The notes under the pieces were generated by a model. That model was not told the origin of the DNA. It did no database searches and was given only the letters and a program-made list of their open reading frames with translations. Shown one piece after another: positions 34,337 through 48,990 of a stretch of 64,000 nt of DNA (the stretch's first letter is position 1; each line of letters starts with the position of its first letter). The position numbers and the translations under genes were made by a program. This stretch comes from Escherichia coli. GTDB lineage: Bacteria; Pseudomonadota; Gammaproteobacteria; Enterobacterales; Enterobacteriaceae. The stretch is taken from NCBI RefSeq assembly GCF_050320075.1, contig NZ_CP190021.1; one strand, written 5' to 3'.

Positions 34337-37300
34337 TCATCGGCCGGGGCTGTGGGAGAGATCCTGATGCAGAGTTTTTTCCTGCCTGTCCTCCGGCTTT
34401 TGGCTGTTGGACCACTGCTGCCATGACTGCTCGAAGCCCAGGTTCCGGTACAACGCATCAGGTTGTTTTTCCGGCGTGTAGACAGCAGCAAAAAGCGGTT
34501 CTTCCCGGGTTTTCAGATGAAACTGCATAAGCTCCGGTGCGGGGCGATTCGTGCTGTCAGCATCGTGGTTTACCGCTTCACCATAACCTGCAAAGCGTAA
34601 ACCTTTGTCGGTCAGCGCATTGATAACCAACTGACTGTTGTCGGCCGATGGGGTGGCCAGTGCCGGATACAATGTGCCGTTCAGCCGGACCACACCCTGC
34701 AGATGTTCATCGGCACTCTGGACAAGTAGCAGGTTGAGTTCACGCGTATCCTTATCCACTGATCCCAGAACAGGTGTCAGCTTGTCAGGGGCTGCGCTGG
34801 TTATTTCTGTTACCTGATTTGCGTTCTGTGGCGCGGAGACCGGATGTCGGTCTTCACCGATAAACAGATGTGAGCCGACGTTTTCTGGCATACGTAACGC
34901 TTTCATCTCTTCGGGCCACCCCTGGCTGATTTGCGCAGCCACTTTCATAAAGGTTTCGACCGGAATCGCCTGAATACGCTGACCTTTATCCGGATTATCA
35001 TGTGATACCGAGATCCCGTTGGTAACTGACTCCATGGACCACTTATTCCGGAAACGTGCTTTTTGCTCACCAGGGAGAATGAATTGTTCGCGGTTCTGAA
35101 GTGTCAGTGTCACCACGTCACCTTTCTGATGGTTTTTGACCAGACTTTCCAGTTGTTCCCCCCAGTAGAGTTTGCTGCCACTGCGGTTTTTAAGCTCAAC
35201 AAAGAAACTCTCTCCTTTGCCGGGTGCATATTCAGCACGACCAAAATTGTGCAGTACGGCAGTCACGCTCTCTCCCGGGCGAAGTTTTCCTGGTGGTTCT
35301 TCACCTTGTGCCGCATCTGCCGTTTTGCCAGGTTCAGCCGGTGATGATGCAGGGACGGTGCTGACGGTTGATGCTTCAGGGGCAACTGGGGACGCCGGGG
35401 ATTGTGTGGCTTCTTTTTCCTGAACGGGGTCAGGGACAACCGGTTGTTCAGGGGTATTCCGGTTAAGTTCCGGCGTTGGCTGATGGGTGACAACAGCATC
35501 CTTACCGACAGCCATTTCCTTACGTAATGTATCGAGCTCCAGACGCTGATCAGCGTGTTTCATGCGCACATTGATGTTGTGCTCGATAATCAACCGCATC
35601 GCTTTTTGCTTAAAGGCATCACTGCCTGTCAGCTCAATGACGCCACCATAGAAATTAGTGGCCACAGCAAGTGCGGCCAGAACACTGCGATCGTCATTGC
35701 TGGCACCGTCGACCATTTCCAGCCGGTTTACCCGGTCAATGAAGGCTGGTTTGCCATCCAGCTTGTACAGGACGGTTCTGTCTGCTCGTTTTTCACCCTT
35801 CAGTGATTTTATGATTTCGTCCAGATTAAGCGATATCGGTGCATCAGGACGTTCCGGGGCGTAGACAATACTGTCAGGTGTCGGTGTGGTCGTCGTGGTT
35901 TCCGGTGAGGGCGTGGGATCACTGTTCTCATGTGCCTGTGAATCCGTTTTTTTACGCGTAAAAAAGCCACGCGCTTTGTCGAGAAACGATGAAGTATTAT
36001 CAGAAGGTGATGTGCTCTGAACAGGTTGCTGTGGATTGGGTTCATCCCGGACAGCCGGTTCTGCAGTATCTGTTGTGGCCTGAAGTTCTGACTCATCTGC
36101 CTGAACGTGGTCTGTGTCCGGTTGCGACGGCATATCACTGTTTTCCTGCAGATGCTCAGGATTTTCATTGTTCATCAGCTCCTGATATGCGCTGTAGTTT
36201 TCGTATTCTTCGGGGCCATCTGACTCAGGAAGGAACGGCTCTGGCTGAAGGGGAATGTCTTCAGTTACATGGCTGACCGCCTCTTCCCGGGGAGTATCCG
36301 GGGATATTCCGGTGCTTTGTTTGTCATCAGGCTCCGTCATCACGGTCATTTCCTCTTTGACTGCATCAGGGGAAGGTGATGGCTCGGCTGATTCATTCAT
36401 GGTTTCAGATGAGGGACTGTCTTCAGGGGATGCGGGGGCGGCAGCAGGGGCCGGTATTTCAGGTGAAGTGCCGGATTCCTGTTGTGACTCGTTTTTTTCC
36501 GGTTGTGACAGTTCGGCTTCAAATTCACGCCAGTCTTTATCTGTGGCCACCGAGACAACTTTTTCCGGAGGTTCCGCCGGATGAGCGGGTTCATCAGGGG
36601 CAGATGCCGTTGTACTTTCCGGGGACGCCGGTGATTCTGCAGGGGAGTCCTGAACTACAGAGCTTTCCGTTTGCGCCTGAACGTTATCAGCGTGCCGCTC
36701 ATCTTTGCCGTTATTTTCAGTGGCGTGACTGGTAAATGACTGTGTTTCGTCAGCAATGTTACTGCTGGAAGCAGCTGGTTGTTCCTGCTGCGTGGCGGAC
36801 GGCAGAGAAGGTCCCTGGTCATGGCTGTGCCCTGTATCGGGTGATGTTTCAGGATATTCTGTCGGAGTCATGGTTTTTTCCTCAGTGTGGACCGGTGTAA
36901 AAACGAGGTTGCCGATCACCAGTGCCTCGCGGATTTCCGGGGTGTTACTGTTGGGGGTGGAAACCCCGATGTGTTCTAACTGGGCGTTGATGACATGCTG
37001 AAAAGCGGCCCGTCCCCGGCTTGCGTCCAGGTCATTGAAATCGGTCAGCCCCTGCGCTTTTTCGGCATCGGTGAACGCAGGAAAGATGACCGTTCCTCCT
37101 GTCAGTTCTGCGGCTTTTGTTGCACTGACGATACCTTTGTTAACCCGGATTGCATGATCGTTGTCGGCACAGAAGATAAAGGGGCTTTGCGTCCACTTTT
37201 GCCGGGCATTTTCGGCAACGGCAATCATGTTGCCTCCATCCACCGTCATCAGTACCGGAAGGCCCGTGGCTTCGTGCAGGGAGGCCGCAGTGGCATAGCC

Positions 37301-38104
37301 CTCGGCAAACAGTACCGGCTGACCGTTGCGCGGTGTGCCCAGCGCAAACCAGTTACCGGTTTTCTCTGAATCTTTCAGGATGCGGGCATCCTTCCCCCCG
37401 GTGACCGGAATACGCTGGTAAGAGCGTATCGCGCCGTTACGGTTACTGAAGGGAATAACCAGTTCATTTTTGTTGTTTACCCGCACCCCCGGTGCAGCCT
37501 GAATGCCTTTCCGGGTCAGGTATTCATGTGCTGTGGCCTGCGGCCATTTGTTGACATAGCGGCGGGCATACGCGGCCTGTCGGTTGTACTGTGCTTTCAG
37601 TTCCCGCTCCGCGTCCTCCCTGCGTTGCATTGAATGCGCTTTCAGGTGGAGTCTTGCGCGGGGATCTGTCTGTTCTCCGCCGGAGAAGGTCCAGGTGATC
37701 GGCGAATCATCCGCGCTGCGATAATCCCTGTACCAGCCGGCAGGTCTGCCGTCCAGGAATCCGCGATATGCGCCACTTTTTTGTCCTTTTTTGTCATCGG
37801 CAGTCGGGACACGGTGGATTTTCCCGTCCATGACCGGCAGTTCTTTCAGAACCAGTCCGGCATTCTCCAGAACCTGGGCAAACTCGGTGACCGGATCACT
37901 GCCGTTCATGGAGACGTCCTGTGGCCGGGGCAGCCAGCGGTCCAGCCTGGACAGGTCCGCCCCCGGGCGGGCGAACCAGAGTTTGTGCTCCTTGTCCCAG
38001 ATGACGGGCGTGTGCCCGTTCATCGGGGGATGTGCTTTTTTGAGATCTTCTATTTCATCTGCAGGCACGGCAAGCCAGGTGCGGTAGCGGGATACAGACG
38101 GCAT
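34337..38104 (-). CDS. sogL: SogL DNA primase (SogS produced from an in-frame internal start; transferred to recipients)
   Basis: Start at MPSVSRYRTW after AGGAG gives 1255 aa, the SogL length as recalled. There is an N-terminal Toprim/primase region and a roughly 400-aa Pro/Glu/Ser/Thr-rich acidic linker (about 35.9-36.9 kb). Confidence 0.9.
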   Translation of the reverse strand: MPSVSRYRTWLAVPADEIEDLKKAHPPMNGHTPVIWDKEHKLWFARPGADLSRLDRWLPRPQDVSMNGSDPVTEFAQVLENAGLVLKELPVMDGKIHRVPTADDKKGQKSGAYRGFLDGRPAGWYRDYRSADDSPITWTFSGGEQTDPRARLHLKAHSMQRREDAERELKAQYNRQAAYARRYVNKWPQATAHEYLTRKGIQAAPGVRVNNKNELVIPFSNRNGAIRSYQRIPVTGGKDARILKDSEKTGNWFALGTPRNGQPVLFAEGYATAASLHEATGLPVLMTVDGGNMIAVAENARQKWTQSPFIFCADNDHAIRVNKGIVSATKAAELTGGTVIFPAFTDAEKAQGLTDFNDLDASRGRAAFQHVINAQLEHIGVSTPNSNTPEIREALVIGNLVFTPVHTEEKTMTPTEYPETSPDTGHSHDQGPSLPSATQQEQPAASSSNIADETQSFTSHATENNGKDERHADNVQAQTESSVVQDSPAESPASPESTTASAPDEPAHPAEPPEKVVSVATDKDWREFEAELSQPEKNESQQESGTSPEIPAPAAAPASPEDSPSSETMNESAEPSPSPDAVKEEMTVMTEPDDKQSTGISPDTPREEAVSHVTEDIPLQPEPFLPESDGPEEYENYSAYQELMNNENPEHLQENSDMPSQPDTDHVQADESELQATTDTAEPAVRDEPNPQQPVQSTSPSDNTSSFLDKARGFFTRKKTDSQAHENSDPTPSPETTTTTPTPDSIVYAPERPDAPISLNLDEIIKSLKGEKRADRTVLYKLDGKPAFIDRVNRLEMVDGASNDDRSVLAALAVATNFYGGVIELTGSDAFKQKAMRLIIEHNINVRMKHADQRLELDTLRKEMAVGKDAVVTHQPTPELNRNTPEQPVVPDPVQEKEATQSPASPVAPEASTVSTVPASSPAEPGKTADAAQGEEPPGKLRPGESVTAVLHNFGRAEYAPGKGESFFVELKNRSGSKLYWGEQLESLVKNHQKGDVVTLTLQNREQFILPGEQKARFRNKWSMESVTNGISVSHDNPDKGQRIQAIPVETFMKVAAQISQGWPEEMKALRMPENVGSHLFIGEDRHPVSAPQNANQVTEITSAAPDKLTPVLGSVDKDTRELNLLLVQSADEHLQGVVRLNGTLYPALATPSADNSQLVINALTDKGLRFAGYGEAVNHDADSTNRPAPELMQFHLKTREEPLFAAVYTPEKQPDALYRNLGFEQSWQQWSNSQKPEDRQEKTLHQDLSHSPGR

Positions 38105-38129
38105 GAGTGCTTCTCCTGAAAAAAGACGG

Positions 38130-38159
38130 AAAAAAACCACCGCCGGAAGCCGGGGGTGG
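38130..38159 (-). terminator. intrinsic terminator between nuc and sog
   Basis: Minus sense reads CCACCCCCG-gctt-CCGGCGGTGG (imperfect) followed by T7. It lies about 25 nt before the sog RBS. Confidence 0.65.
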
Positions 38160-38193: not shown

Positions 38194-38745
38194 TCAGGGT
38201 TTCCAGTCTGTACCCTTATTCCAGCGATCCTGCCAGTGTTCAAGATATTGTGCGGCTACATCCGGCATATTCTTGAGCACAACGACATTCTCTGAATTCT
38301 TGCGTGCAGCAGCACGAGAGAAGTTATAGGAGCCAGTTTCAACCGTGTTTCCGTCAACAATGATGACTTTGTCGTGATGGATGGGGAAGGCATCTACAGT
38401 CCGGAGAGGAATGTCCAGCAGGTTGATATATTTCATCGCTTCCTGACTTGCCCGGTTCGTATTCCCCTTGTCATCAACAACAATACGGACGTCCACTCCG
38501 CGTTTTTTCGCTTTTGCCAGCGCATGCATTACATCCGGGTCGGTGAAGGAATATGCCATCATCCTGATGGAGCTTTCCGCACTGTTGATTGTGTCAAGCA
38601 CCAGAGCGGATGCGCTTCCTTCAGGAGAAAAGCCGACCTTCACGGATGGCGTGTCGATCATTGCAAACGATGGTGTCGTGAACAGTAACGGGCATGCCAG
38701 TAGCGATACCCGGAGCAGAGTAACGATAGTTTTTTTACCTGACAT
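38194..38745 (-). CDS. nuc: Nuc, periplasmic PLD-family endonuclease
   Basis: 183 aa from MSGKKTIVTLL (signal peptide), with GGAG upstream. The HKD motif is PIHHDKVIIVDGNTVETGSYNFS. The 303-aa track ORF is an upstream run-on. Confidence 0.9.
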   Translation of the reverse strand: MSGKKTIVTLLRVSLLACPLLFTTPSFAMIDTPSVKVGFSPEGSASALVLDTINSAESSIRMMAYSFTDPDVMHALAKAKKRGVDVRIVVDDKGNTNRASQEAMKYINLLDIPLRTVDAFPIHHDKVIIVDGNTVETGSYNFSRAAARKNSENVVVLKNMPDVAAQYLEHWQDRWNKGTDWKP

Positions 38746-38759
38746 AAAGACTCCAGAAT

Positions 38760-39050
38760 TTAATCGAGGCCAGTCCAGTCTCGTGGTGATTCCGTATGGT
38801 GGCGATACCACCATGGACGACCGGAGGCGATGGCCCCTCTCAGAATGCTGAAAATGCGTGTACAGATAGTCCTGACAGTCCAGCCTGAACGGTCGAGAAT
38901 AACGAAAAATAAAATGATGCCGGTGCAAATCCAGAAGGTTGTTTTGGAGGGAAAGGGGCATATAAACAGATAAATCATGGTGAACGGCAGAGGTACGCCC
39001 TGGATGTTGACTGGCGGTGTTGCATATCGCCAGAAACCTTCTCTTTTCAT
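38760..39050 (-). CDS. traK: TraK (IcmT-like small membrane protein)
   Basis: 96 aa, overlapping the traJ stop. Hydrophobic core is LPFTMIYLFICPFPSKTTFWICTGIILFFVIL. Confidence 0.75.
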   Translation of the reverse strand: MKREGFWRYATPPVNIQGVPLPFTMIYLFICPFPSKTTFWICTGIILFFVILDRSGWTVRTICTRIFSILRGAIASGRPWWYRHHTESPRDWTGLD

Positions 39051-40195
39051 GACCGTAACTCCCCTGGCGGGATAAAAAGAATCGCTTCTCTTCGGTCAAC
39101 TTCATTCCGGATATACATTTCCAGAATCTGGTCCCGGATACGGCGCTTCTCCTGCCGGATTATGGCATCAATGTGATGCCCCCACTCTGCATGCGGCATT
39201 CCGGAAAGATTGTCGCGAAGCTCATCGTTAATGACGATATATTCCCGGACGGCTTTACGACCACCGTCATTTGTTCTGACCAGAACCTGAACCAGAATGA
39301 ACTGCAACAGTGACAGGACAGCCCAGGCCATCGAATCCCTGATGACAGGGGGAAACAGCCCAAGAAGACGTGCCAGCGTTTCACCAGGAGATTTCGTATG
39401 CATGGTGCTCAGGCAGTAATGCCCGGTGTTGCCTGCCTGTACCGCTGCGTCGGCGGTTTCGTTATCCCTGATCTCACCAACACCGATAATTTCGGGATTA
39501 CGTCGTACAGCAGAACGCAGTCCGGCAGCAAAACTGACCACATCACGCCCGATTTCTGCCTGATGCGGTGGGAGCAGATCGTTTTCATTTCCCAGGATAT
39601 ATTCCACCGGGTCTTCATATGTCACGATTTTGGCGTCGGGGAAATTGTCCATAATGTAACGGTACAGTGCTGAACACAGCGTTGATTTTCCTGACCCGGT
39701 TTCACCACATACAAATCCCAGACCGCTTTTGCAGACCATTGCTTCAAGCAGGTCTGGTTCAATGTTCATGGAGAGAATGTCCGGTATTTCTGTCGGGATG
39801 ACACGCATGGTTATTGAGATTGCTTTCTCCTCCGCACCAGATGTGCCCTGAATGAGGTGAGAGCGTAACCGGATGCGTTCTCCGCGTTTAAGACCATAGC
39901 GCCCGGATGCATCCCCGTTAATCTGTATCGTCCTGTCAACCGGATTGCCTGCCAGAACGCGGGGAATGACTTCCCGACCGAACAGTTCATCAATCAGGGA
40001 GGACATGAGTGTGGTTGGTAACGTTGCACTGGAACAACGCACCCGTCGGCCAAAGCGACTGACAGATACAGGTGACCCGCCGGTCAGATCCACATCACTG
40101 ACTTTATGTGCGGCACACCAGACAAAGAAATGCCGTAGTTCATCTGCAGTGAAACGCTGAAACGGAAAAAGACCAAACTCATCAGGAATATTCAT
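39047..40195 (-). CDS. traJ: TraJ (DotB-like PilT-family hexameric ATPase)
   Basis: 382 aa with Walker A motif GETGSGKST. Confidence 0.9.
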   Translation of the reverse strand: MNIPDEFGLFPFQRFTADELRHFFVWCAAHKVSDVDLTGGSPVSVSRFGRRVRCSSATLPTTLMSSLIDELFGREVIPRVLAGNPVDRTIQINGDASGRYGLKRGERIRLRSHLIQGTSGAEEKAISITMRVIPTEIPDILSMNIEPDLLEAMVCKSGLGFVCGETGSGKSTLCSALYRYIMDNFPDAKIVTYEDPVEYILGNENDLLPPHQAEIGRDVVSFAAGLRSAVRRNPEIIGVGEIRDNETADAAVQAGNTGHYCLSTMHTKSPGETLARLLGLFPPVIRDSMAWAVLSLLQFILVQVLVRTNDGGRKAVREYIVINDELRDNLSGMPHAEWGHHIDAIIRQEKRRIRDQILEMYIRNEVDRREAILFIPPGELRS

Positions 40196-41010
40196 CGGGA
40201 GCCTCCTTCAGTGCCTATAAGCGGACGCCAGTGAGATTTCTGAAGATTGAATTCCGCATGATTTTTAAGGCGACGAACACGATCTCCAGTGACCAGTTTT
40301 TTCCCGTCACCTGTAACGGTTTGCATTTGATCAGAAACATCCGGACGGGTGATCATGCCCTGACGCCAGAGAAGTGAGTACAGCATCATGCCCCGGTAAT
40401 CACGGGTGAGGGTTTTCTGGTTGGCTTCAAGCGTCAGGTCGGCGTTTTGTCTTCCTTCCTGCCATCCCTGCCGTAATGCGGTTTCCCACACTTTTCGTTG
40501 CACGCTGTCTTCTGGAACGACGCTGCCTTCTGTACCCGGAGTGGCTGTTGTTGAAAGCCCCCGGAGAAGCCAGTCACGCCAGCCCGGTGGATTGCTGACA
40601 AAGCGTTCAGGGCGAATGATGGTCCAGACCCGGGAAGAGGTCCGGATTTGATCTGGCGTGATATGAGCTACGTCCTGTGCTTCATCAATAACCGGTGGTA
40701 GCCAGCCTTCCGGGCTAATCAGTGGCCGGAAATCGTATAAGGCATTAAGTGTGCTTTCCCGGGCGTTGAGCGCCTGAATCAGCTCCCATGAACGCTGAGC
40801 CTTGCCACCACGAAATCCAAGCGTTTTACCTGCGTCTGTCAGCATTTTCCAGCGTGTTTCTGACAGACTATCCGGCTTTTCACTTCGTGGTTTAAGCCAT
40901 GCATTAATGTCAGGTGGTGGCGTATTGACACCACCTGGCGAGATGGTAGGGGAAGAAGAACAACCAGTAAGCAGTATTACTGGCAAAAGGAGAGAGGTGA
41001 GTGCTTTCAT
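40192..41010 (-). CDS. traI: TraI lipoprotein (DotC-like)
   Basis: 272 aa with lipobox LLTGC. Confidence 0.85.
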   Translation of the reverse strand: MKALTSLLLPVILLTGCSSSPTISPGGVNTPPPDINAWLKPRSEKPDSLSETRWKMLTDAGKTLGFRGGKAQRSWELIQALNARESTLNALYDFRPLISPEGWLPPVIDEAQDVAHITPDQIRTSSRVWTIIRPERFVSNPPGWRDWLLRGLSTTATPGTEGSVVPEDSVQRKVWETALRQGWQEGRQNADLTLEANQKTLTRDYRGMMLYSLLWRQGMITRPDVSDQMQTVTGDGKKLVTGDRVRRLKNHAEFNLQKSHWRPLIGTEGGSR

Positions 41011-41465
41011 TTTTTCCGGTTCTCCGGCTGCATGAAGCTGACCTGTAACAAGCCCGGATATTGATGGATTGTTGCTCTCCAGGCTGTCTGGGCTTCAATA
41101 AGTCTCAACGTATTGGAAAACGTCATATCCCGGACGTGAAGGTTGACTGGTAACGGCAGGCGGACACCATTGTAGTTAAACTGCATCCCCCTGACTCTGG
41201 CCAGTTCGTTCAGTAATTCAATTGCATCACCTTCCCAGTCAAAGGAAAGGCGATCGCTGTTAGCTGTCAGAAGATGAGACCCCGTTGAAACCGGAAGTTG
41301 GCCGGAAAATACACCTTTGTCCCATAATGTGTACTGAGTGTGCCGGGTAACCGCCACATCAGAGGCAGCACCGTAGTTACGCGGAACAGGAGTATGCTGA
41401 GAAGGGGAGTTGCAGCCAGCCAGAAAAAGGGCGGCAAGACACCCCGCAGGTATAATACGGTTCAT
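41007..41465 (-). CDS. traH: TraH lipoprotein (DotD-like)
   Basis: 152 aa with lipobox FLAGC. Confidence 0.85.
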   Translation of the reverse strand: MNRIIPAGCLAALFLAGCNSPSQHTPVPRNYGAASDVAVTRHTQYTLWDKGVFSGQLPVSTGSHLLTANSDRLSFDWEGDAIELLNELARVRGMQFNYNGVRLPLPVNLHVRDMTFSNTLRLIEAQTAWRATIHQYPGLLQVSFMQPENRKK

Positions 41466-41674
41466 AATAATTCCTGAGCAGTTAAATCAGAATGGGATAT
41501 ACCGGTGCTCCGGTACAGACAGGATGATGTTTGTTTCCGGCTATACTTGCGTTACCGGAAATAAATGCCAGTGTGGCCAGGTAAATAGCCTCATAGTTTA
41601 CTGAAGGTGATTATTCCTGATACTGGCTGGTTGATGTGTCGTCAGACATAAAACGAATATGAGCGTAATCTTTA

Positions 41675-41820
41675 ACGCTCCGCGCCGAATCGATCCATGA
41701 TGGATGACTCGACGATTTATGAATCGAACGTACCGGCGCTTGTCCCTGAAACAGTTCCCGGCCCTCGTCCGGATAACCTGCAATTCAGACAGGCACATGT
41801 GCCCGTACACTCTTGTATCT
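41675..41820 (-). promoter_or_regulatory. conserved structured leader element, copy 1 (traG-traH gap), ending in an ops-like motif
   Basis: Homologous to 62171-62313 and 63233-63379. Minus sense ends ...CATCATGGATCGATTCGGCGCGGAGCGTTAA. Confidence 0.7.
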
Positions 41821-41859
41821 TACTGAGTATATCAGAATTTATGTAAATTCAAATATCCT

Positions 41860-42444
41860 CTATGCCTCTTTGTTGTATTTTCCGTCAAGTATGAGCCGGG
41901 TACCATCGTAATGCATGATCAGGGCATCAAGGTACGCCGGTTTGAATTTCTTGCCGAGCCTATCTCTGGCCAGAAATGATAAACAATGATTATGTGTCAT
42001 TATTACTATGTTCCTTTTATGAGATTCTCTTGCGATTGATTCAAGCGTCTTATAAAGATCATTATTGCAGTCTGATAAACTGTCCATAACGACGGGTTCT
42101 TTACCGGAGAAGAATTTTGCAGTTTGTATGGTTCTTACCGCATTGCTGGAGTAAATATCATATTCACTGAAGATTGTTGCGAACTTAATACCTTCCTGCT
42201 GTGCTTTCTCTGTACCGGTAATAGTGATTCCGCTTTTATCCGAATAGCATGGCATATCTGAACGGTCGCAACGTTCTCCATGGCGGAAAAGGAAAATAAC
42301 GGTGTTATCAGCATTAATTTCTTTTGCCTGTTCCAGGGTGATATCGGGAAGCGAGCTTTTTGCTTTTGTCACTGCCGCTACCAGGAAAACAGAAAATAAA
42401 AGAATGAATGCTGTTTTTGAATAAGAAGAACGTGGTTTCATCAT
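41860..42444 (-). CDS. traG: periplasmic histidine-phosphatase, Ais/PmrG-like (gene position of traG)
   Basis: 194 aa with a signal peptide. Catalytic motifs are FLFRHGERCDR and IVIMTHNHC. Near-colinear with E. coli Ais (LPS core heptose(II)-phosphate phosphatase) as I recall it (..YSSN.VRTIQ.A..FS.. , FKP.YLD.L.MH). Confidence 0.75.
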   Translation of the reverse strand: MMKPRSSYSKTAFILLFSVFLVAAVTKAKSSLPDITLEQAKEINADNTVIFLFRHGERCDRSDMPCYSDKSGITITGTEKAQQEGIKFATIFSEYDIYSSNAVRTIQTAKFFSGKEPVVMDSLSDCNNDLYKTLESIARESHKRNIVIMTHNHCLSFLARDRLGKKFKPAYLDALIMHYDGTRLILDGKYNKEA

Positions 42445-42503
42445 GTTATTTAAACTGAATATAAAAATACCCCCGGGTTTAGTGCCGGGGGCGGGGACAG
42501 TAA

Positions 42504-43706
42504 TCAGAAAGTGAACTGAAGTTGTGCCATTGCACCGTAATCGTGGTCAGTTCCTACCAGGCCGGAAACATCGATATGTACGACGTCAAATGGAGAGATA
42601 CCAACGCCAGCGGTGAAGGCGCTTCCGGAGTTTGATGCCATGTTCTGACGATAACCGGCACGCAATTGCGCCCATTTCCATGCGTTAAATTCAGCACCAA
42701 CACTTGCAAACTGACGTTTGCTGTCAGAAGTGAAGCCACTGGCAGGAGTCAGATCAATGTCAAGAGCAGTGGTAAACAGGTCATTATGCCAGGATACACC
42801 GGCGGTTGCCTGCGGACGAACTTTGAAGGTTTCTTTAAAGCCATTGACGACTTTAGTATCAATACTGCGTGGAATGATGTTCTGGGCAACAAGACCGACA
42901 GTCCAGTTGTCATTCAGGTCTGTATAAGCACCAATATCGGCGTTGAATCCGTTTTTCGTGTTGTGGTACTTGTCACCGTCAAAATCGTCTTTGTCGTAAT
43001 CACGAACCGTTACGTTGTAGTTAAACAGGTCCACACGCTGATATTTTGGTGTGACGCCAAGAGACCATTTTTGTCCGGCCGTTTCCAGTTCTTTGGCAAA
43101 TGAAATTCCGACGTCGGTAATTACAGCTGCACGCCCGAATGCGCGTGAGGTCAGGGCATTCTTATCGACGTCGGTAATTGTTCCATTGGCAACTTTGTCC
43201 AGATAATCCAGGTCTGCATCGTTTACTTTTCCGTTTACGCTGACAGTTCCGTAAGACTTGACCATAAGGGCAAACGGCAGAGTGTCATTTGCCATGGCTG
43301 CTACAGCTGATACACCTACCTGAGCATCTGCATTGATATTGCGGAATTCCTGCAGACGATGTTTAAGATTTGCCGCTGCCTGTTGTACGCCATGCTGGTT
43401 ATCTACAGCACTGTCAAACAAATCCCAGTCATCTTTAACATCATCAGCTTTATTTGATACATCATCAGGATCAGCAACTTGTGCCCCAACAGACGGCAGA
43501 AGAAGGCTGAAATCATCATTGCTGTTGTGCTTTGTCAGTAAAGCCGGGTTTGCCAGAGGTGCCACACCATAATGGGAAGATGCTACCCCGGTACCACCCA
43601 TTGCATCGTTACGCGCTTCAAAATATGACGTCGCTGCTGCAGCGTTAAAGGAAAATAATACAGCAGATGCAATGATGGTGCGGGTAATATGATTTTTCTT
43701 CATCAT
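42504..43706 (-). CDS. traF: outer-membrane beta-barrel protein (gene position of traF)
   Basis: 400 aa with a signal peptide ending AAAATS. Alternating beta-strand pattern and a C-terminal ...AQLQFTF aromatic terminus typical of OMPs. Confidence 0.75.
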   Translation of the reverse strand: MMKKNHITRTIIASAVLFSFNAAAATSYFEARNDAMGGTGVASSHYGVAPLANPALLTKHNSNDDFSLLLPSVGAQVADPDDVSNKADDVKDDWDLFDSAVDNQHGVQQAAANLKHRLQEFRNINADAQVGVSAVAAMANDTLPFALMVKSYGTVSVNGKVNDADLDYLDKVANGTITDVDKNALTSRAFGRAAVITDVGISFAKELETAGQKWSLGVTPKYQRVDLFNYNVTVRDYDKDDFDGDKYHNTKNGFNADIGAYTDLNDNWTVGLVAQNIIPRSIDTKVVNGFKETFKVRPQATAGVSWHNDLFTTALDIDLTPASGFTSDSKRQFASVGAEFNAWKWAQLRAGYRQNMASNSGSAFTAGVGISPFDVVHIDVSGLVGTDHDYGAMAQLQFTF

Positions 43707-43790
43707 TTAATTTCCTGTTTATCAGAATTTAGACAAAACAACGCTATGACACGGATGTGCCGTAATTTTTACTTTGGTACTATCTGGTAT

Positions 43791-44615
43791 TTACCAGGGT
43801 AATAAAGACGTATTAAATAAGCTAACAGGTAGTATTTGCCCTGTAATAAGGTTCCCGGCAAGGCCAGGTCTCAACGTGACGCGTCGCAAAGACATTGTTG
43901 TATTCTGCCTGGTTGTATATTCAGTTAACCATTTTCTTTTTTCATCGTTCAGAAGTGTTGGTGATAATGATAGTGCCGGATATATTACAGAGCCATTTAT
44001 TTCTTTTTTCTGTCTCAATATTACCCCGCAATATTCTCTTTTCGTATTTCCTGCGAAGGGGAAACTATGCCAGAAAATAACTTCAGTGTTGCTGCTATCA
44101 CTAATAAGCATTCTGAAATTATCAGCAGTATCTGGCCATTCACCGGACAACGCTATCGGATAGTTTTCATGGCCATTCAGCCAGTCCGGATTGAGATTAA
44201 AACATTCAGCAAGATGTTCGAGAGCGTCAGCTGAAAGATAGTCTGCAAGTCTGGCCGGGTCCTGTATAACCGTGGAGCGGATATTCCATGGCGACAGCAA
44301 TGTTGCCAGTAATGGCGCATTTATATCATGCGACAGCATGATGTATTCAATTCTGCTTATTATGTTTCCTGTGGTGTTATCCGCAGGCATAAACATATTA
44401 TGAAGAGCATCCTCAAGCAGGATTCGGGTTAAATCAGCGGTGGATATGGCTAATTGTTCGCTCATTATCCCCAGAACTTCTCTTACCCCTTGGGGGTAAC
44501 GGACCTGCAGAGGTGTCGGGTTTATCTGACGACCGTTGATGAGTTTTTCGCCGATTGCTTTTTTGTCCAGCGAGAGCATCATTCGGGCCGCAATACCGGT
44601 CGTATTCAGTCTCAT
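43791..44615 (-). CDS. traE: TraE (function unknown)
   Basis: 274 aa. First gene after rci in R64 order. Confidence 0.7.
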   Translation of the reverse strand: MRLNTTGIAARMMLSLDKKAIGEKLINGRQINPTPLQVRYPQGVREVLGIMSEQLAISTADLTRILLEDALHNMFMPADNTTGNIISRIEYIMLSHDINAPLLATLLSPWNIRSTVIQDPARLADYLSADALEHLAECFNLNPDWLNGHENYPIALSGEWPDTADNFRMLISDSSNTEVIFWHSFPFAGNTKREYCGVILRQKKEINGSVIYPALSLSPTLLNDEKRKWLTEYTTRQNTTMSLRRVTLRPGLAGNLITGQILPVSLFNTSLLPW

Positions 44616-44765
44616 TGTTCCTCCGACTGAAAAAGTCTTTTCAGCTCATGTGGTTATTGTATCTTCGGTGTTTTTTCTGGTGAAACGAATAATTTCGATC
44701 ATGCAGATCGAATGTGTTTGGCGAGTTGTTGCAACTCGCCTTTCTGTATGTGTTTTGAATGATGT

Positions 44766-45920
44766 TTACAGCGGGGTGCTGCCCGGGTTCAGAGGGCAAA
44801 TCATAATGTAGTCAGGGTCGTTAACAGGTAACGCTCCGGGAGATGGGACACGTTCGCCTTTCTGTGCTGCAATGGCCAGTGTACGCAACAAAACCTCACT
44901 GGCGCGGTGAACTGCTTCCTCTTTCGTTGTGGCAGTGACGTGAAGGTTATCAAAATCACCGATCTCAATACGATGCGCTTTCTGCCCATTTTCTTCATCG
45001 ATGGTCGTGATATGGGCAGGATACGGCACAAACCATGCTGCTACTTTTTGTGTCTGCCGCCGGCGGGCATCAAGCTTACTGACCAGTTGCCATGCACGAA
45101 GATGAGTATACCGTTTCAGCATATTCATGGAACGATGTCCTGATATTGCAGCAATCTCCATTACATTCAGGCTACCCAGTTCGAAGAAGCGGCTTATTGC
45201 TTCATGCCGTAGATCGTGAAAATGCAGGTCCTCGATGCGAAGTCGTTGTGTGGCTATTCTCCAGGCATTTTTAAAGCCGGATGCGGTGTAATCAAAAACA
45301 TTGCCGTGGAGATTAACGGGCATCATCTGAAGAAAGTTACGGGCACGTCTGGACAGAGGAACATCCCGTGAGTGACCGTTTTTGGTTTCAGGTAAATGAG
45401 CCACACCGTGGCGCAAATCAATGTGCTCCCAACGTAAGGCCAGTATTTCGCCCTGCCGCATGGCTGTCTCAAGGGCAAGATGGAAAATGACATACAACAT
45501 CAGATTTTTTTCGCGGAAATAGCGAGAAAGGCGACGTTCTTCTGAAGACGTTAGCCGGCGATCTCGTCCCGAGGATACTTTCGGCTTGCGAACCAGTTCA
45601 ACCGGGTTAGTACGACAGGTTCCCCATTCAACACGAGCAATATTGAACAGAGATGACAGAAGGGCGAGTTCAAGACGTACAGTATTACCTGTAATGGGTT
45701 TACCCGTTCGGGGGTTGATTTCTGCTAAACGAACGTCTCTGTATGTAGCAATATCAACGGTTGTTATTTCGTCCATATTCCGAAGGGCAATGGGATATCG
45801 CTTGATAACATTGCTCCGGTAAAACTCCTGTTGATGCCCTTTCTTGTGAACAGAAACTGTTTTCAGGTACTTATCCAGTGCGCGTGACAGGGACATTTTA
45901 CGGATGCGTGGAGACGGCAT
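44766..45920 (-). CDS. rci: Rci shufflon-specific tyrosine recombinase
   Basis: Start at [19 protein letters not shown] gives 384 aa, equal to R64 Rci. Tyrosine-recombinase motifs are [10 protein letters not shown] and LKRYTHL. Confidence 0.93.
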
Positions 45921-45971: not shown

Positions 45972-47908
45972 GTGCCAATCCGGTACCTGGGGCGCTCCTA
46001 AAATTCAATTCACAACGCAGACCTACAACATAGCTAAAAACACTCGTAATTTAAGGCTCGGGGTCCATGCATATTGCTCATGGACTTACCTGAATGGCTC
46101 ACCCTTTGGTGGTTTTCAACAGGTATATTCCGACCAAAACAACGTTTGGTATGTGAGTAATTATGCTTGGGGAAATTATGAGTCTGGTGGGACCATATCA
46201 GTCACATGCCTCAATCTTCCTGGTGCTGGAGCTTAATTAAAGGGGCAACAGTAGGCATCGACATGTTCCTCATCAACACCATCACCAATACCGTACATGC
46301 GTGTTCCAGTCATAATGTATCCAGTCGGACATTGAATCGGCTTGTAATAGATCGAACCACCACTCTTACCGCCGATAAAGTGATTCATTGCTACGGATGA
46401 TTTGTACCAATTACATGCTGAGTAATTAATTTTATTACCCCCTGACCACCGACCGGATTGGCACGTAGGCCAGTGCCAATCCGGTACTTGGCGTAAAAGC
46501 AATTCTGGTAGTACGGTGATAACTGGTCGTATAGCAAATGGTCAGCAAATACCGCTGCCAACAGGATTTTCTGCCAGTCAGTGCTCATGGAGTGTGAGCA
46601 ATGCAGAAAACCCTCAAGGTTGGAAGCCGAATTACTTTGCAGGATCAGTTGCAACTTATGATGCAAATCGAATTGTTAAATGTGGTTTTTATGATGAATA
46701 CAATTTCCATAAAGGGACATTTAGAGCTGATTTAACCGGAAAATGTAGTTATGTCGTCGCGTGTCAGAACTGAGATTAAATTGCTGGCGCTGCTGGCCTA
46801 CGTGCCAATCCGGTACCTGGAGAAAGGTAGGATCTGGTGAGCTTCAAATTGCTACAGCACAGGCCACAGGTTGGCGCTTTCCTGGAGCAACAGCTACTTG
46901 TCCAACTGGAAAACGTGTTACAGGTGGCGGCGGAATATGCACCTCACGAACTGGTTACATATGGCTTACCAGGTCATTCCCATCAGCCAATAACTCATGG
47001 TCGGCTGCGTGCGATACAACCGAAGATCAGAATGGTTCAATAACTGTATATGCCATTTGCCAATAAGCTATTTCAAGCAAGTAATCTTCATAAAGTAGGA
47101 CGAATACTGTGTGTAGTTTTTGGCTTGCCAAGTCATCTCGCCGTTAGAGTCAGGCATGTCAATAGGAACGACTTCTGTTTCTGCCATTTCACGCCCGTCA
47201 ATACGATAGGTGTTAATACACAGTTTAAACCTCCCTAAGACCTGTGTGTTTTTGGGATATAACGTAAATGTTTTTATATTCGTCCATATCGACGCTGATG
47301 ATGATTTCCAGGTACCGGATTGGCACGTAGGCCAGTGCCAATCCGGTACGTGGAAGACTTCTGGTTCGCTCAATGGTTCTTACACAAACTTAGGTTCACA
47401 TAGAGGTTCATTCTCAGGGCGGAATTCAGGGGGCAGTACATTGTTTATTTATGCATCTGGAGGTAATGGAGGATCTGCCGGAGGTGCATGTGCAAATACA
47501 TCCCGACTGCAGGGATATGTTGGTGGGACGCTAATTAGCGTGAATGCCAGCAATAACCCTGCATATGGAAAAACAGCCTTTATCAGCTTTGCTGTACCTG
47601 CAGGTACTTCCTATCAGATAACATCCTATCCAACAGAAAATACATCATGTGGTGCCGGGGTATTTTCAGTATTTGGATATCAAACTTAATTGAGCGTTAC
47701 ACACGACGCAATACAACCTGTCTTATGCTCGTATTTGTACCATTTGCGTGAACCTGCTGGGCTCTCAACTACCTGGCAGTAGTGGGCATCCTCTGCGTTG
47801 CCCATTCTGGCAATGGCACAGAAGTCGAATTGCCCCAGATAACCTGTGGTGGAAAGCTGAGTAACTTTGAGTTTTCCACCTATTGTCCCCCACGTACCGG
47901 ATTGGCAC
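45972..47908. mobile_element. shufflon: multiple-inversion cluster with seven 19-bp sfx repeats and seven alternative pilV 3' exons
   Basis: sfx core is GTGCCAATCCGGTNNNTGG. Plus-orientation copies are at 45972-45990, 46473-46491, 46802-46820 and 47335-47353. Minus-orientation copies are at 46446-46464, 47308-47326 and 47890-47908. Each sfx encodes C-Q-S-G-T-W (one copy C-Q-S-G-R-W) and opens into a different ORF tail (+45972-46236, -46233-46464, +46473-46773, +46802-47066, -47068-47326, +47335-47689, -47686-47908). Confidence 0.92.
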
Positions 47909-48990
47909 GAAAGTATTGCCCCTGTATTATCGCGGCCTACAAGGCCGTTAGGCGAACATGATGCGCCAGCAACGGCAGTTCTTTCCAGTTGTAAGTATTC
48001 ACCAGTATAAAGGCGACCATCAGCCCGAACAGTACCGCCTTTCACCTGACCGCCGGTATAGATGCCCTTGTTGTTTACACTTCGAACCCATGATCCATCG
48101 GACATATAAAATCCGCCACCGTGAGTTTCATTGAGCCAGCCTTTACTGTTACGAGTAATTAACCAACCATTATTACTTCTGATATCACCGCCAGCGGTGA
48201 CATTTACGTCAAAGTTTCCGCTATTGCCTTTTACCTGACCGCTGAAAGTGCCATTTACACCATTCACATTGCCGCTGAAATTACCTGTCTGGGCATTTAC
48301 TGCCCCAACGTTATTCAGGTTATTTGATCCCATATCAATGGCCGTGTGCATTTTGTTTAAGTCAGGGCGACCATTGACCTGGAATCTGTAAAGACGATCA
48401 GTGTCCTCAGCTGCACCACTAAGTTCATCTGTCGATAACAATACGGCAATATGCCCGTTACCGCTTTTGGCACCATAATTACTTAAAGCTACTGACCAGG
48501 AACGTAATGCACCTGTGGCTGTTTTGCCGTCCTGGATATATCCACCAAGACCAGTGGTAATATCCTTAGCCATCTGGATAAGTGCTTTCACTGGATAAGG
48601 TGTGCCACCACTGGATACAACCATTGCCTGTAGTAATTCCGGGTTTTGGGCGTTTCGAACCACATATGCCTGTAACCGCTGCCCCTCGCTGTTTGTCTCA
48701 GTAAACCCGCTGGACAAAAAGCCGGTATTTTTCAGCATGGTTGTCGTGATAACGGCAGGAGTTGTTGTGGTACTACTGCCCTGGAGAGTCGTGTAGTTTT
48801 TCCCTATATAAGAGCGGGCCGCACTGGTCCAGTTGCTGACAAGACGTGCTTCAGTTTGCCATCCTTTTGTTTGAATATAGTCCTGCCATATGCCCGCTCC
48901 CCAGGCAATCAGGAGCATAACAATCAGTAAAGCCGCGCCAGTTTCCAGCGATGCCCAGCCTCGGTCATATTTTTTCATCAGATTACCCAT
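47686..48990 (-). CDS. pilV: PilV thin-pilus tip adhesin (type IV prepilin-like), current shufflon isoform
   Basis: Prepilin leader is ..[13 protein letters not shown]. The constant region ends at the sfx at 47890-47908 (ILSCQSGTW) and is currently fused to the 47686-47889 segment. The start is either 48990 or 48978. Confidence 0.9.

Follow-up and report, generated by a model that had tools for sequence, protein, structure and literature searches.

The window analyzed here, a 64,000-nucleotide stretch of Escherichia coli DNA, corresponds to the transfer region of a conjugative IncI1 plasmid (R64/ColIb-P9-type), in which the tra genes considered below all lie on the minus strand. Two adjacent genes from its list of open reading frames (ORFs) are our subject: traF (positions 42504..43706, minus strand), which encodes a 400-residue putative outer-membrane beta-barrel (Pfam TraF_2) resembling FadL, TodX, and PorV, and traG (41860..42444, minus strand), which encodes a 194-residue histidine phosphatase of the Ais/PmrG family with an N-terminal signal or anchor. 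An earlier note on this DNA gave the span and lengths of the two ORFs exactly. It had further proposed that TraG links the transfer region to recognition of lipopolysaccharide (LPS) by the pilus adhesin PilV. The family assignment of TraG is solid; its gene appears to be a single-gene accessory insert, retained under purifying selection, in a part of the transfer region where I-type plasmids carry different cargo, and the proposed connection with PilV is not supported.

Assignment of TraG to the Ais/PmrG family

TraG is a member of the small Ais/PmrG family of histidine phosphatases. It matches Pfam His_Phos_1 (PF00300) at 35.1 bits (cutoff 21.7) and NCBIfam NF011945 at 295.1 bits (cutoff 142), the latter across profile positions 4–200 of 201 and with a score second only to that of E. 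coli K-12 Ais (391.9 bits). The 'PmrG' equivalog model NF052369 is non-discriminating, since K-12 Ais (145.8 bits) falls below its cutoff of 170 just as TraG does (123.7 bits). The near-colinearity with Ais stated in the earlier note is real: BLASTP against the K-12 protein (b2252, NC_000913.3) aligns 164 residues at 43% identity with a single 1-residue gap (E 2e-51), and the alignment confirms homology at the level of sequence. The RHGE and H motifs claimed for the 194-residue product are likewise present, within FRHGERCDRS (R54-H55-G56-E57) and THNHC (H151), respectively.

Conservation of these motifs was assessed in an alignment of 19 family members, which takes in IncI1 alleles, copies borne on IncF plasmids, chromosomal Ais, and distant relatives from Pseudomonas. 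The RHGERCDRS motif (42259..42285, minus strand), comprising R54, the nucleophile H55, R58, and C59, is invariant throughout, Ais and the Pseudomonas relatives included, as are the T150, H151, and C154 columns of the THNHC motif (41983..41997, minus strand), which holds the second catalytic histidine, H151. The invariant columns include R54, H55, R58, R104 (42133-42135, minus strand), and H151, plus the cysteines C59, C66, C126, and C154; the catalytic roles of R58, R104, and H151 are assigned by motif position and fold rather than by residue-level superposition. TraG keeps every family-invariant residue beyond the bare catalytic core, the four cysteines and the GIT and YLD motifs among them.

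Residues 1–28 of TraG (42361..42444, minus strand) have a positive N-terminus, a hydrophobic core, and a possible signal-peptidase site (T-K-A/K, with the slash at the point of cleavage). Lys/Arg residues precede the single hydrophobic segment of the protein (residues 11–25; Kyte–Doolittle maximum of 3.06 at residue 12, 11-residue window), T-K-A/K follows it, and residues 10–30 are helical in the structural model. The N-terminus may be a cleaved signal or a membrane anchor, either of which is compatible with the sequence, and, together with the four conserved cysteines, it fits an exported, disulfide-bonded periplasmic protein.

The AlphaFold2 model of TraG (14-sequence alignment) has a mean predicted local distance difference test score (pLDDT) of 91 and a predicted template modeling score (pTM) of 0.82, and all 50 matches listed by Foldseek against the PDB have the histidine-phosphatase fold (E down to 3e-8), among them RosC, PGAM5, phosphoserine phosphatase, and SixA. 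With these four, TraG shares the fold and the catalytic Arg-His-Gly/Arg/His set at 10–20% identity; they are cytoplasmic or mitochondrial, whereas TraG is predicted to be exported and to contain two presumed disulfides. A search of PDB sequences with TraG returned no relative, and there is therefore no solved Ais structure available for superposition.

TraG resembles E. coli Ais (b2252) and Salmonella PmrG in NF011945 membership, length, N-terminal hydrophobic signal, the RHGERCDRS, SS..VRT.Q.A, and THNHC motifs, the four conserved cysteines, and the absence of large indels. It differs from them in genomic location and in control. Chromosomal Ais is always found in an arnB-ais-nudI-yfaZ context (Escherichia, Citrobacter, and Salmonella, with a distant branch in Pseudomonas), whereas traG is plasmid-borne between traF and traH; and ais and pmrG are PmrA-activated, whereas traG shows no PmrA-box signal above chance (40 matches in the search against 42 expected, with none upstream of traG). 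The family as a whole is small, with 131 cluster representatives at E <=1e-3 and 13 at <=1e-30 among 1.84 billion proteins. In a rough neighbor-joining tree, for which some short ORFs were mis-extracted, TraG falls in its own clade, apart from chromosomal, arnB-linked Ais.

Both the link between TraG and Ais and the traF/traG pair are already known. Public records name the traG product 'histidine phosphatase' (in PLSDB, 'histidine phosphatase family protein') or else 'LPS core heptose(II)-phosphate phosphatase' and the traF product 'conjugal transfer protein TraF', and the pESBL locus O3K_25647 is annotated as an LPS core heptose(II)-phosphate phosphatase (Table 2, PMC4288162). The homology with Ais, posed earlier as an open question, is thus correct as homology and was not open, being present in public annotations. 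Literature searches found no published test of TraG activity or phenotype. What is new here, if modestly so, is how the cargo slot is built and how deeply diverged alleles, under purifying selection, have replaced one another; both points are described below.

The traF–traH junction and its alleles

Comparison with other I-type plasmids suggests that traG is a one-gene accessory insert, with a terminator that follows traE-traF on one side and, on the other, what is probably the traH-block promoter. The corresponding slot is empty in an IncK2/Z plasmid (L003), where a 103-bp gap separates traF from traH, in three Salmonella plasmids (L090-L092) whose TraF is 86% identical, and in a Pectobacterium plasmid (L093). 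The spacer of L090 shows homology to the window in two stretches, one that begins exactly at the stop codon of traG (41861..41828) and one at 41700..41675 (26/26 bases); because the homology begins at the stop codon, traG is a clean single-ORF indel of ~600 bp. Elsewhere the slot holds other genes. In a divergent plasmid typed as IncK2/Z (L002), it is occupied by a different Ais-like gene, 38–41% identical to TraG depending on the alignment, and in a Salmonella element (L094; TraF 78% identical) by a D12-class (Dam-like) DNA methyltransferase (L094:4794-5630). As far as these sequences indicate, the traF–traH junction behaves as a cargo slot in I-type plasmids. Upstream of traE, the Salmonella element also carries an AbiEii gene and an integrase.

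Alleles of traG itself appear to be exchanged. An IncI plasmid contig (L085) is near-identical to the window in traE, traF, traI, and traJ, with synonymous divergence (dS) of 0.011–0.030; for traG, the protein identity is 72%, dS is 1.05, and nonsynonymous divergence (dN) is 0.16 (dN/dS 0.15). Identity between the two sequences drops from 98–100% to ~70% exactly at the traF stop (42501), and the low-identity tract takes in traG (~70%) and the spacer (~45%) before identity recovers inside traH by ~41200. This pattern is best read as an allele swap: a 1.3-kb cassette has been replaced, and the IncI backbone is otherwise the same. The L085-type allele is rare: its cluster has 9 members, and PLSDB has none. 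We considered and rejected a description of traG as 'hypervariable': the 73% allele is not in PLSDB, and one allele dominates. Across traG alleles, dN/dS is 0.15–0.17 at dS up to ~1, values that speak for purifying selection on a functional rather than a decaying gene.

The dominant allele is widespread and largely intact. The 3.2-kb traE–traG stretch is present at >=95% identity in 1,381 PLSDB plasmids, which come mostly from Escherichia, Salmonella, and Shigella; more than 1,370 PLSDB plasmids carry traG, and the gene is intact in ~97% of the matching plasmids. Among complete E. coli genomes, 780 of 5,426 (14%) encode traG, with 827 of 831 locations on plasmids. The traG sequence of the window, which is the dominant IncI1 allele, occurs on at least 1,000 contigs with all catalytic residues intact. 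Rare variants include R54H in the RHG motif (P0001; 13 contigs) and a form that has lost six residues (MPCYSD), the invariant C66 among them (P0002; 10 contigs), and IS2 is inserted in traG of one plasmid (NZ_CP099359). Plasmid records with a TraG match below 60% identity number 68, and all those examined are IncF or IncK2/Z; the plasmid search returned no TraG match from IncI2 plasmids.

Related genes also occur away from transfer regions. An 87%-identical copy in a non-tra context (L089) carries the last 125 bp of traF together with the terminator (window 42628..41858) and was therefore exported from an I-type plasmid. This copy (L089:4817-5587) lies on a 92-kb E. coli contig, where its neighbors are genes for type II secretion (GspC, GspH) and one for a ricin-lectin/metallophosphatase. 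AraC and GrlA-type regulators, and no transfer genes, lie near a 60%-identical relative (P0020), and IncF plasmids carry Ais-like genes as cargo outside any tra region. Several distinct Ais-like genes, 36–60% identical to TraG, are found on E. coli IncF plasmids or islands (L004-L008, which are IncF, and L087 and L088), and their neighbors encode regulators of the AraC or GrlA/CaiF type, proteins with EAL domains, alpha/beta hydrolases, and an S6 serine-protease autotransporter; such neighborhoods suggest virulence-regulon contexts. In common with the Ais-like cargo of IncF virulence-type plasmids and the IncK2/Z slot allele, traG belongs to the same family (38–44% identity), is a single gene with its own flanks, and bears the same name from the Prokaryotic Genome Annotation Pipeline (PGAP). 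It differs from the IncF copies in standing beside transfer genes rather than regulator, EAL-domain, hydrolase, and protease-autotransporter genes; the IncK2/Z copy shares the traF–traH slot with traG, but at the low sequence identity given above.

Candidate expression signals lie on both sides of traG. A terminator-like hairpin (GCCCCCGG-8 nt-CCGGGGGT, followed by ATTTTTAT; 42492..42469, minus strand) is located directly after the traF stop and ~25 nt before the traG ATG, and G+C-rich hairpins, here without the T run, occur at the matching place after traF in L002 and L003. No Shine-Dalgarno sequence precedes traG, whereas GGAGG or AGGA precedes traE, traF, and traH, and the GC content of traG is 40.3% vs. 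47–51% in the flanking genes. Downstream, the 394-bp traG–traH spacer (41466..41859, minus strand) appears to be the ancestral traF–traH intergenic region. It includes a conserved extended -10 promoter-like site (TGATATACT; 41834..41826, minus strand), in which TATACT with an upstream TG is spaced 15 nt from TTGAAT (41852..41847), and a Salmonella plasmid without traG has the same promoter-like element (L090:4821-4854, at subject positions 182-215 of the extract L090:4640-5290). This element (41826-41852) is probably the promoter of the block that begins with traH; a consensus promoter scan did not flag it. The placement of traG 'inside the transfer operon' holds for the transfer region, while operon membership is not plain, given the terminator-like hairpin upstream and the spacer with its promoter-like site downstream. 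An RfaH ops element has been placed in the IncI1 tra promoter region of pTF2 (PMC6768964); in the 64 kb of the window, we found only two one-mismatch matches (2906 and 42801; 2.6 expected), neither of them upstream of traE, traF, or traG on the coding strand.

Function of TraG and competing explanations

TraG is not part of the DNA-transfer machine. According to the account of Komano (2000) given in PMC6112013, traE, traF, and traG are dispensable for R64 transfer, and IncM plasmids are without all three genes (PMC6112013). In transposon sequencing of pESBL, TraG scored 0.79 as non-essential, 0.21 for maintenance, and 0.00 as required for transfer, and TraF and TraE scored 1.00 and 0.93 as non-essential, respectively, both with 0.00 as required for transfer (PMC4288162). 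Considered as a candidate core component of the IncI1 machine (mating-pair formation type I [MPF-I]/type IVB), traG is neither required for transfer nor conserved across I-type systems.

The explanation that we favor, with a probability of roughly 60%, is that TraG is a Sec-exported, periplasm-facing LPS-core phosphatase, carried as accessory cargo outside the transfer machine. TraG would be exported by Sec to the periplasm of the plasmid-bearing cell and there, by analogy with Salmonella PmrG, would most likely remove the phosphate added by WaaY to heptose II (Hep II) of the LPS inner core; the dephosphorylation of Hep II by PmrG is credited to Nishino (2006) in PMC8129183 and PMC4312571. Removal of this phosphate would reduce the negative charge of the core, and TraG would act without PmrA control, possibly at a low level or by expression independent of its neighbors. 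On the same account, traG would be an accessory cargo gene kept by purifying selection, and TraF a separate, much more conserved barrel, dispensable in laboratory mating and not coupled to TraG. Several considerations weigh against this explanation. At 43% identity, a PmrG-like substrate for TraG is plausible, not assured, and the K-12 annotation calls E. coli Ais itself a 'putative' enzyme. The terminator-like hairpin and the missing Shine-Dalgarno sequence put useful levels of TraG protein in doubt; proteomic or transcript evidence for TraG was not found in the literature, where the main text of a cefotaxime proteomics study on pTF2 is silent (PMC5712592; supplements not searched). Moreover, traG is kept in nearly all IncI1 plasmids and is under purifying selection, which suggests a benefit relevant to the plasmid that the account leaves unnamed.

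The proposal in the earlier note was that TraG edits the LPS core of the donor in such a way that its own PilV adhesins ignore other donors, as an extra layer of exclusion or a tuning of recipient choice. Its premise, that PilV adhesins recognize LPS core structures, is borne out, the R64 PilV receptors being outer-core disaccharides (PMC10654706); rci, the shufflon, and pilV are ~3 kb from traG, which is intact and under purifying selection in IncI1, and the donor-to-recipient assays performed with R64 and pESBL are blind to donor–donor effects. Yet in the receptor map of the homologous IncI2 PilV adhesins, no variant needs the WaaY-added Hep(II) phosphate, which is the PmrG substrate: a delta-waaY recipient, which has no Hep(II) phosphate, is still recognized, and of the core phosphates only that added by WaaP to Hep(I) mattered, for PilVA' alone (PMC10654706). 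Since the receptors are independent of the Hep(II) phosphate, its removal is not expected to hide a cell from PilV. The distribution of traG does not follow that of PilV either. I-type plasmids of the IncK2/Z type (L003), of Salmonella (L090-L092), and of Pectobacterium (L093) have pilV, traF, and traH, with a shufflon in several cases, but no traG, the weaker TraG matches that were examined come from IncF or IncK2/Z plasmids and not from IncI2, Ais-like genes are carried by IncF plasmids, which have no PilV, and the slot can be occupied by an unrelated methyltransferase (L094). With transfer dispensability, the terminator, and the absent Shine-Dalgarno sequence added to these observations, a functional link between TraG and PilV is very unlikely, gene proximity being its one positive support. 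The related idea that TraG underlies the phage-type conversion caused by IncI1 plasmids in Salmonella was also rejected, as PMC8004404 credits ibfA and a 1273-residue protein and makes no mention of traG or LPS.

Other explanations retain an enzymatic role for TraG with a different substrate or purpose. A substrate other than LPS, such as a phosphorylated envelope protein, a pilin modification, a lipid carrier, a nutrient, or another periplasmic phosphomonoester, would make the Ais-based name misleading. Histidine phosphatases change substrates easily, the fold matches of TraG span RosC, PGAM5, phosphoserine phosphatase, and SixA, its identity to Ais is only 43%, and its clade is separate from that of arnB-linked Ais; nevertheless, full-length colinearity, an NF011945 score second only to that of Ais (295 vs. 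392 bits), and the conservation of invariant residues beyond the catalytic core (four cysteines, GIT and YLD motifs) make such a shift rather improbable. Somewhat more doubtful is a role in conditioning the donor envelope, whereby lower core charge and less cation cross-bridging in the locality would help the thin pilus or type IVB secretion system to insert or to work, with a quantitative gain in transfer confined to natural hosts or conditions. The position of traG in the tra region beside envelope components (the TraF barrel and the TraH/DotD and TraI lipoproteins), its presence in nearly all IncI1 plasmids, and the effect of host waaP, waaQ, and rfaH on induction of the traF promoter in the IncI1 plasmid pTF2 (PMC6768964) are in keeping with this role, but traG is dispensable in R64 and pESBL, many I-type systems and IncM work without it, and it shows no obvious co-transcription with either neighbor. 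The least credible explanation takes traG for a gene without present function, either silently hitch-hiking or a remnant in decay, as might be supposed from its upstream terminator, its want of a Shine-Dalgarno sequence, its dispensability for transfer, and the occasional IS2 disruption, R54H variant, and 6-residue deletion; the low dN/dS even at dS up to ~1 contradicts this, as does the predominance of a catalytically intact allele on at least 1,000 contigs over damaged variants on 10–13 contigs each.

Returning to TraG as an LPS-core phosphatase carried as cargo, a speculative and on balance doubtful extension is that the IncI1 slot has fixed a PmrAB-independent enzyme that, by removing the Hep(II) phosphate, alters the outward face that the cell presents to phages, colicins, cationic peptides, and metal ions or to the mating pili of other donors; the exchange of anciently diverged alleles between otherwise identical backbones would then reflect selection on this surface phenotype. 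IncI1 plasmids are major carriers of extended-spectrum beta-lactamase (ESBL) as well as AmpC resistance genes in E. coli and Salmonella. If TraG does edit the host LPS core, cells with a very common type of resistance plasmid would have a constitutively altered envelope charge, and susceptibility to metals, cationic peptides, and phages, along with gut fitness, could be affected. The main value of the analysis is that an attractive but unsupported role with PilV is replaced by a clear anatomy: a single-gene cargo slot, purifying selection, and exchangeable alleles.

TraF and the neighboring transfer genes

TraF is, by sequence and predicted structure, an outer-membrane beta-barrel of the FadL/PorV type. 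It matches Pfam TraF_2 (E 4.5e-73), with weak matches to PorP/SprF and PorV/PorQ profiles, and has a signal-like N-terminus (MMKKNHITRTIIASAVLFSFNAAA/A) and the C-terminus QLQFTF, an aromatic beta-signal. The AlphaFold2 model has a pLDDT of 64 and a pTM of 0.60, with values below 50 in the N- and C-terminal strands, and its best Foldseek matches are TodX, TbuX, FadL, and PorV (E 6e-8 to 7e-6; template modeling [TM] scores of ~0.45-0.5); a FadL-like arrangement of 14 strands with an N-terminal hatch was checked against this model, with its terminal strands below 50 and TM of ~0.5. The description of the 400-residue product as a signal-peptide beta-barrel ending in F agrees with all of these features. 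A search of PDB sequences with TraF detected no relative.

Like the FadL, TodX, and TbuX channels and the PorV shuttle of type IX secretion, TraF has a signal peptide, an aromatic C-terminal beta-signal, and a length of ~400 residues; unlike them, it belongs to its own family, TraF_2, which is confined to I-type conjugation regions. TraF is 64–100% identical across the I-type systems of E. coli, Salmonella, Klebsiella, Raoultella, Phytobacter, and Pectobacterium. IncI1 TraF is unrelated to the TraF proteins of the F plasmid and RP4, despite the common name; PMC6768964 treats it as the F/RP4 pilus-assembly TraF. TraF also matches PHROGs phrog_38290 (E 7e-81), to which no function is assigned there, and barrels like TraF are therefore also found among sequences that are classed as phage or as phage-plasmid.

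Upstream of traF lies traE (43791..44615, minus strand; 274 residues), with a Shine-Dalgarno sequence (GGAGG) and a promoter-like site (44684..44656). TraE had no match in Pfam, NCBIfam, PADLOC, or PHROGs, and PADLOC likewise had none for TraF and TraG, nor PHROGs for TraG. Among I-type plasmids, TraE is much more divergent than TraF (33–58% identity), and in the three Salmonella plasmids with an empty slot (L090-L092) only its C-terminal 108 residues remain. Beyond traE are rci, the shufflon, and pilV (pilV 47686-48990, minus strand). An Rfam scan of 41000-45000, which includes the traG–traH spacer, gave no matches.

On the other side of the spacer, traH (41007..41465, minus strand), which encodes a DotD-like lipoprotein, is the first gene of the downstream transfer block. 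It is followed on the same strand by traI (40192-41010), encoding a lipoprotein, traJ (39047-40195; TIGR02525, plasmid_TraJ), and sogL (34337-38140), with nuc, also on the minus strand, between sogL and traJ. The mechanical ORF for nuc (38194-39105) would encode 303 residues, with the phospholipase D (PLD)-like nuclease domain restricted to residues 170-295; the true start is probably internal, near 38745, pESBL Nuc being encoded by a 552-bp gene.

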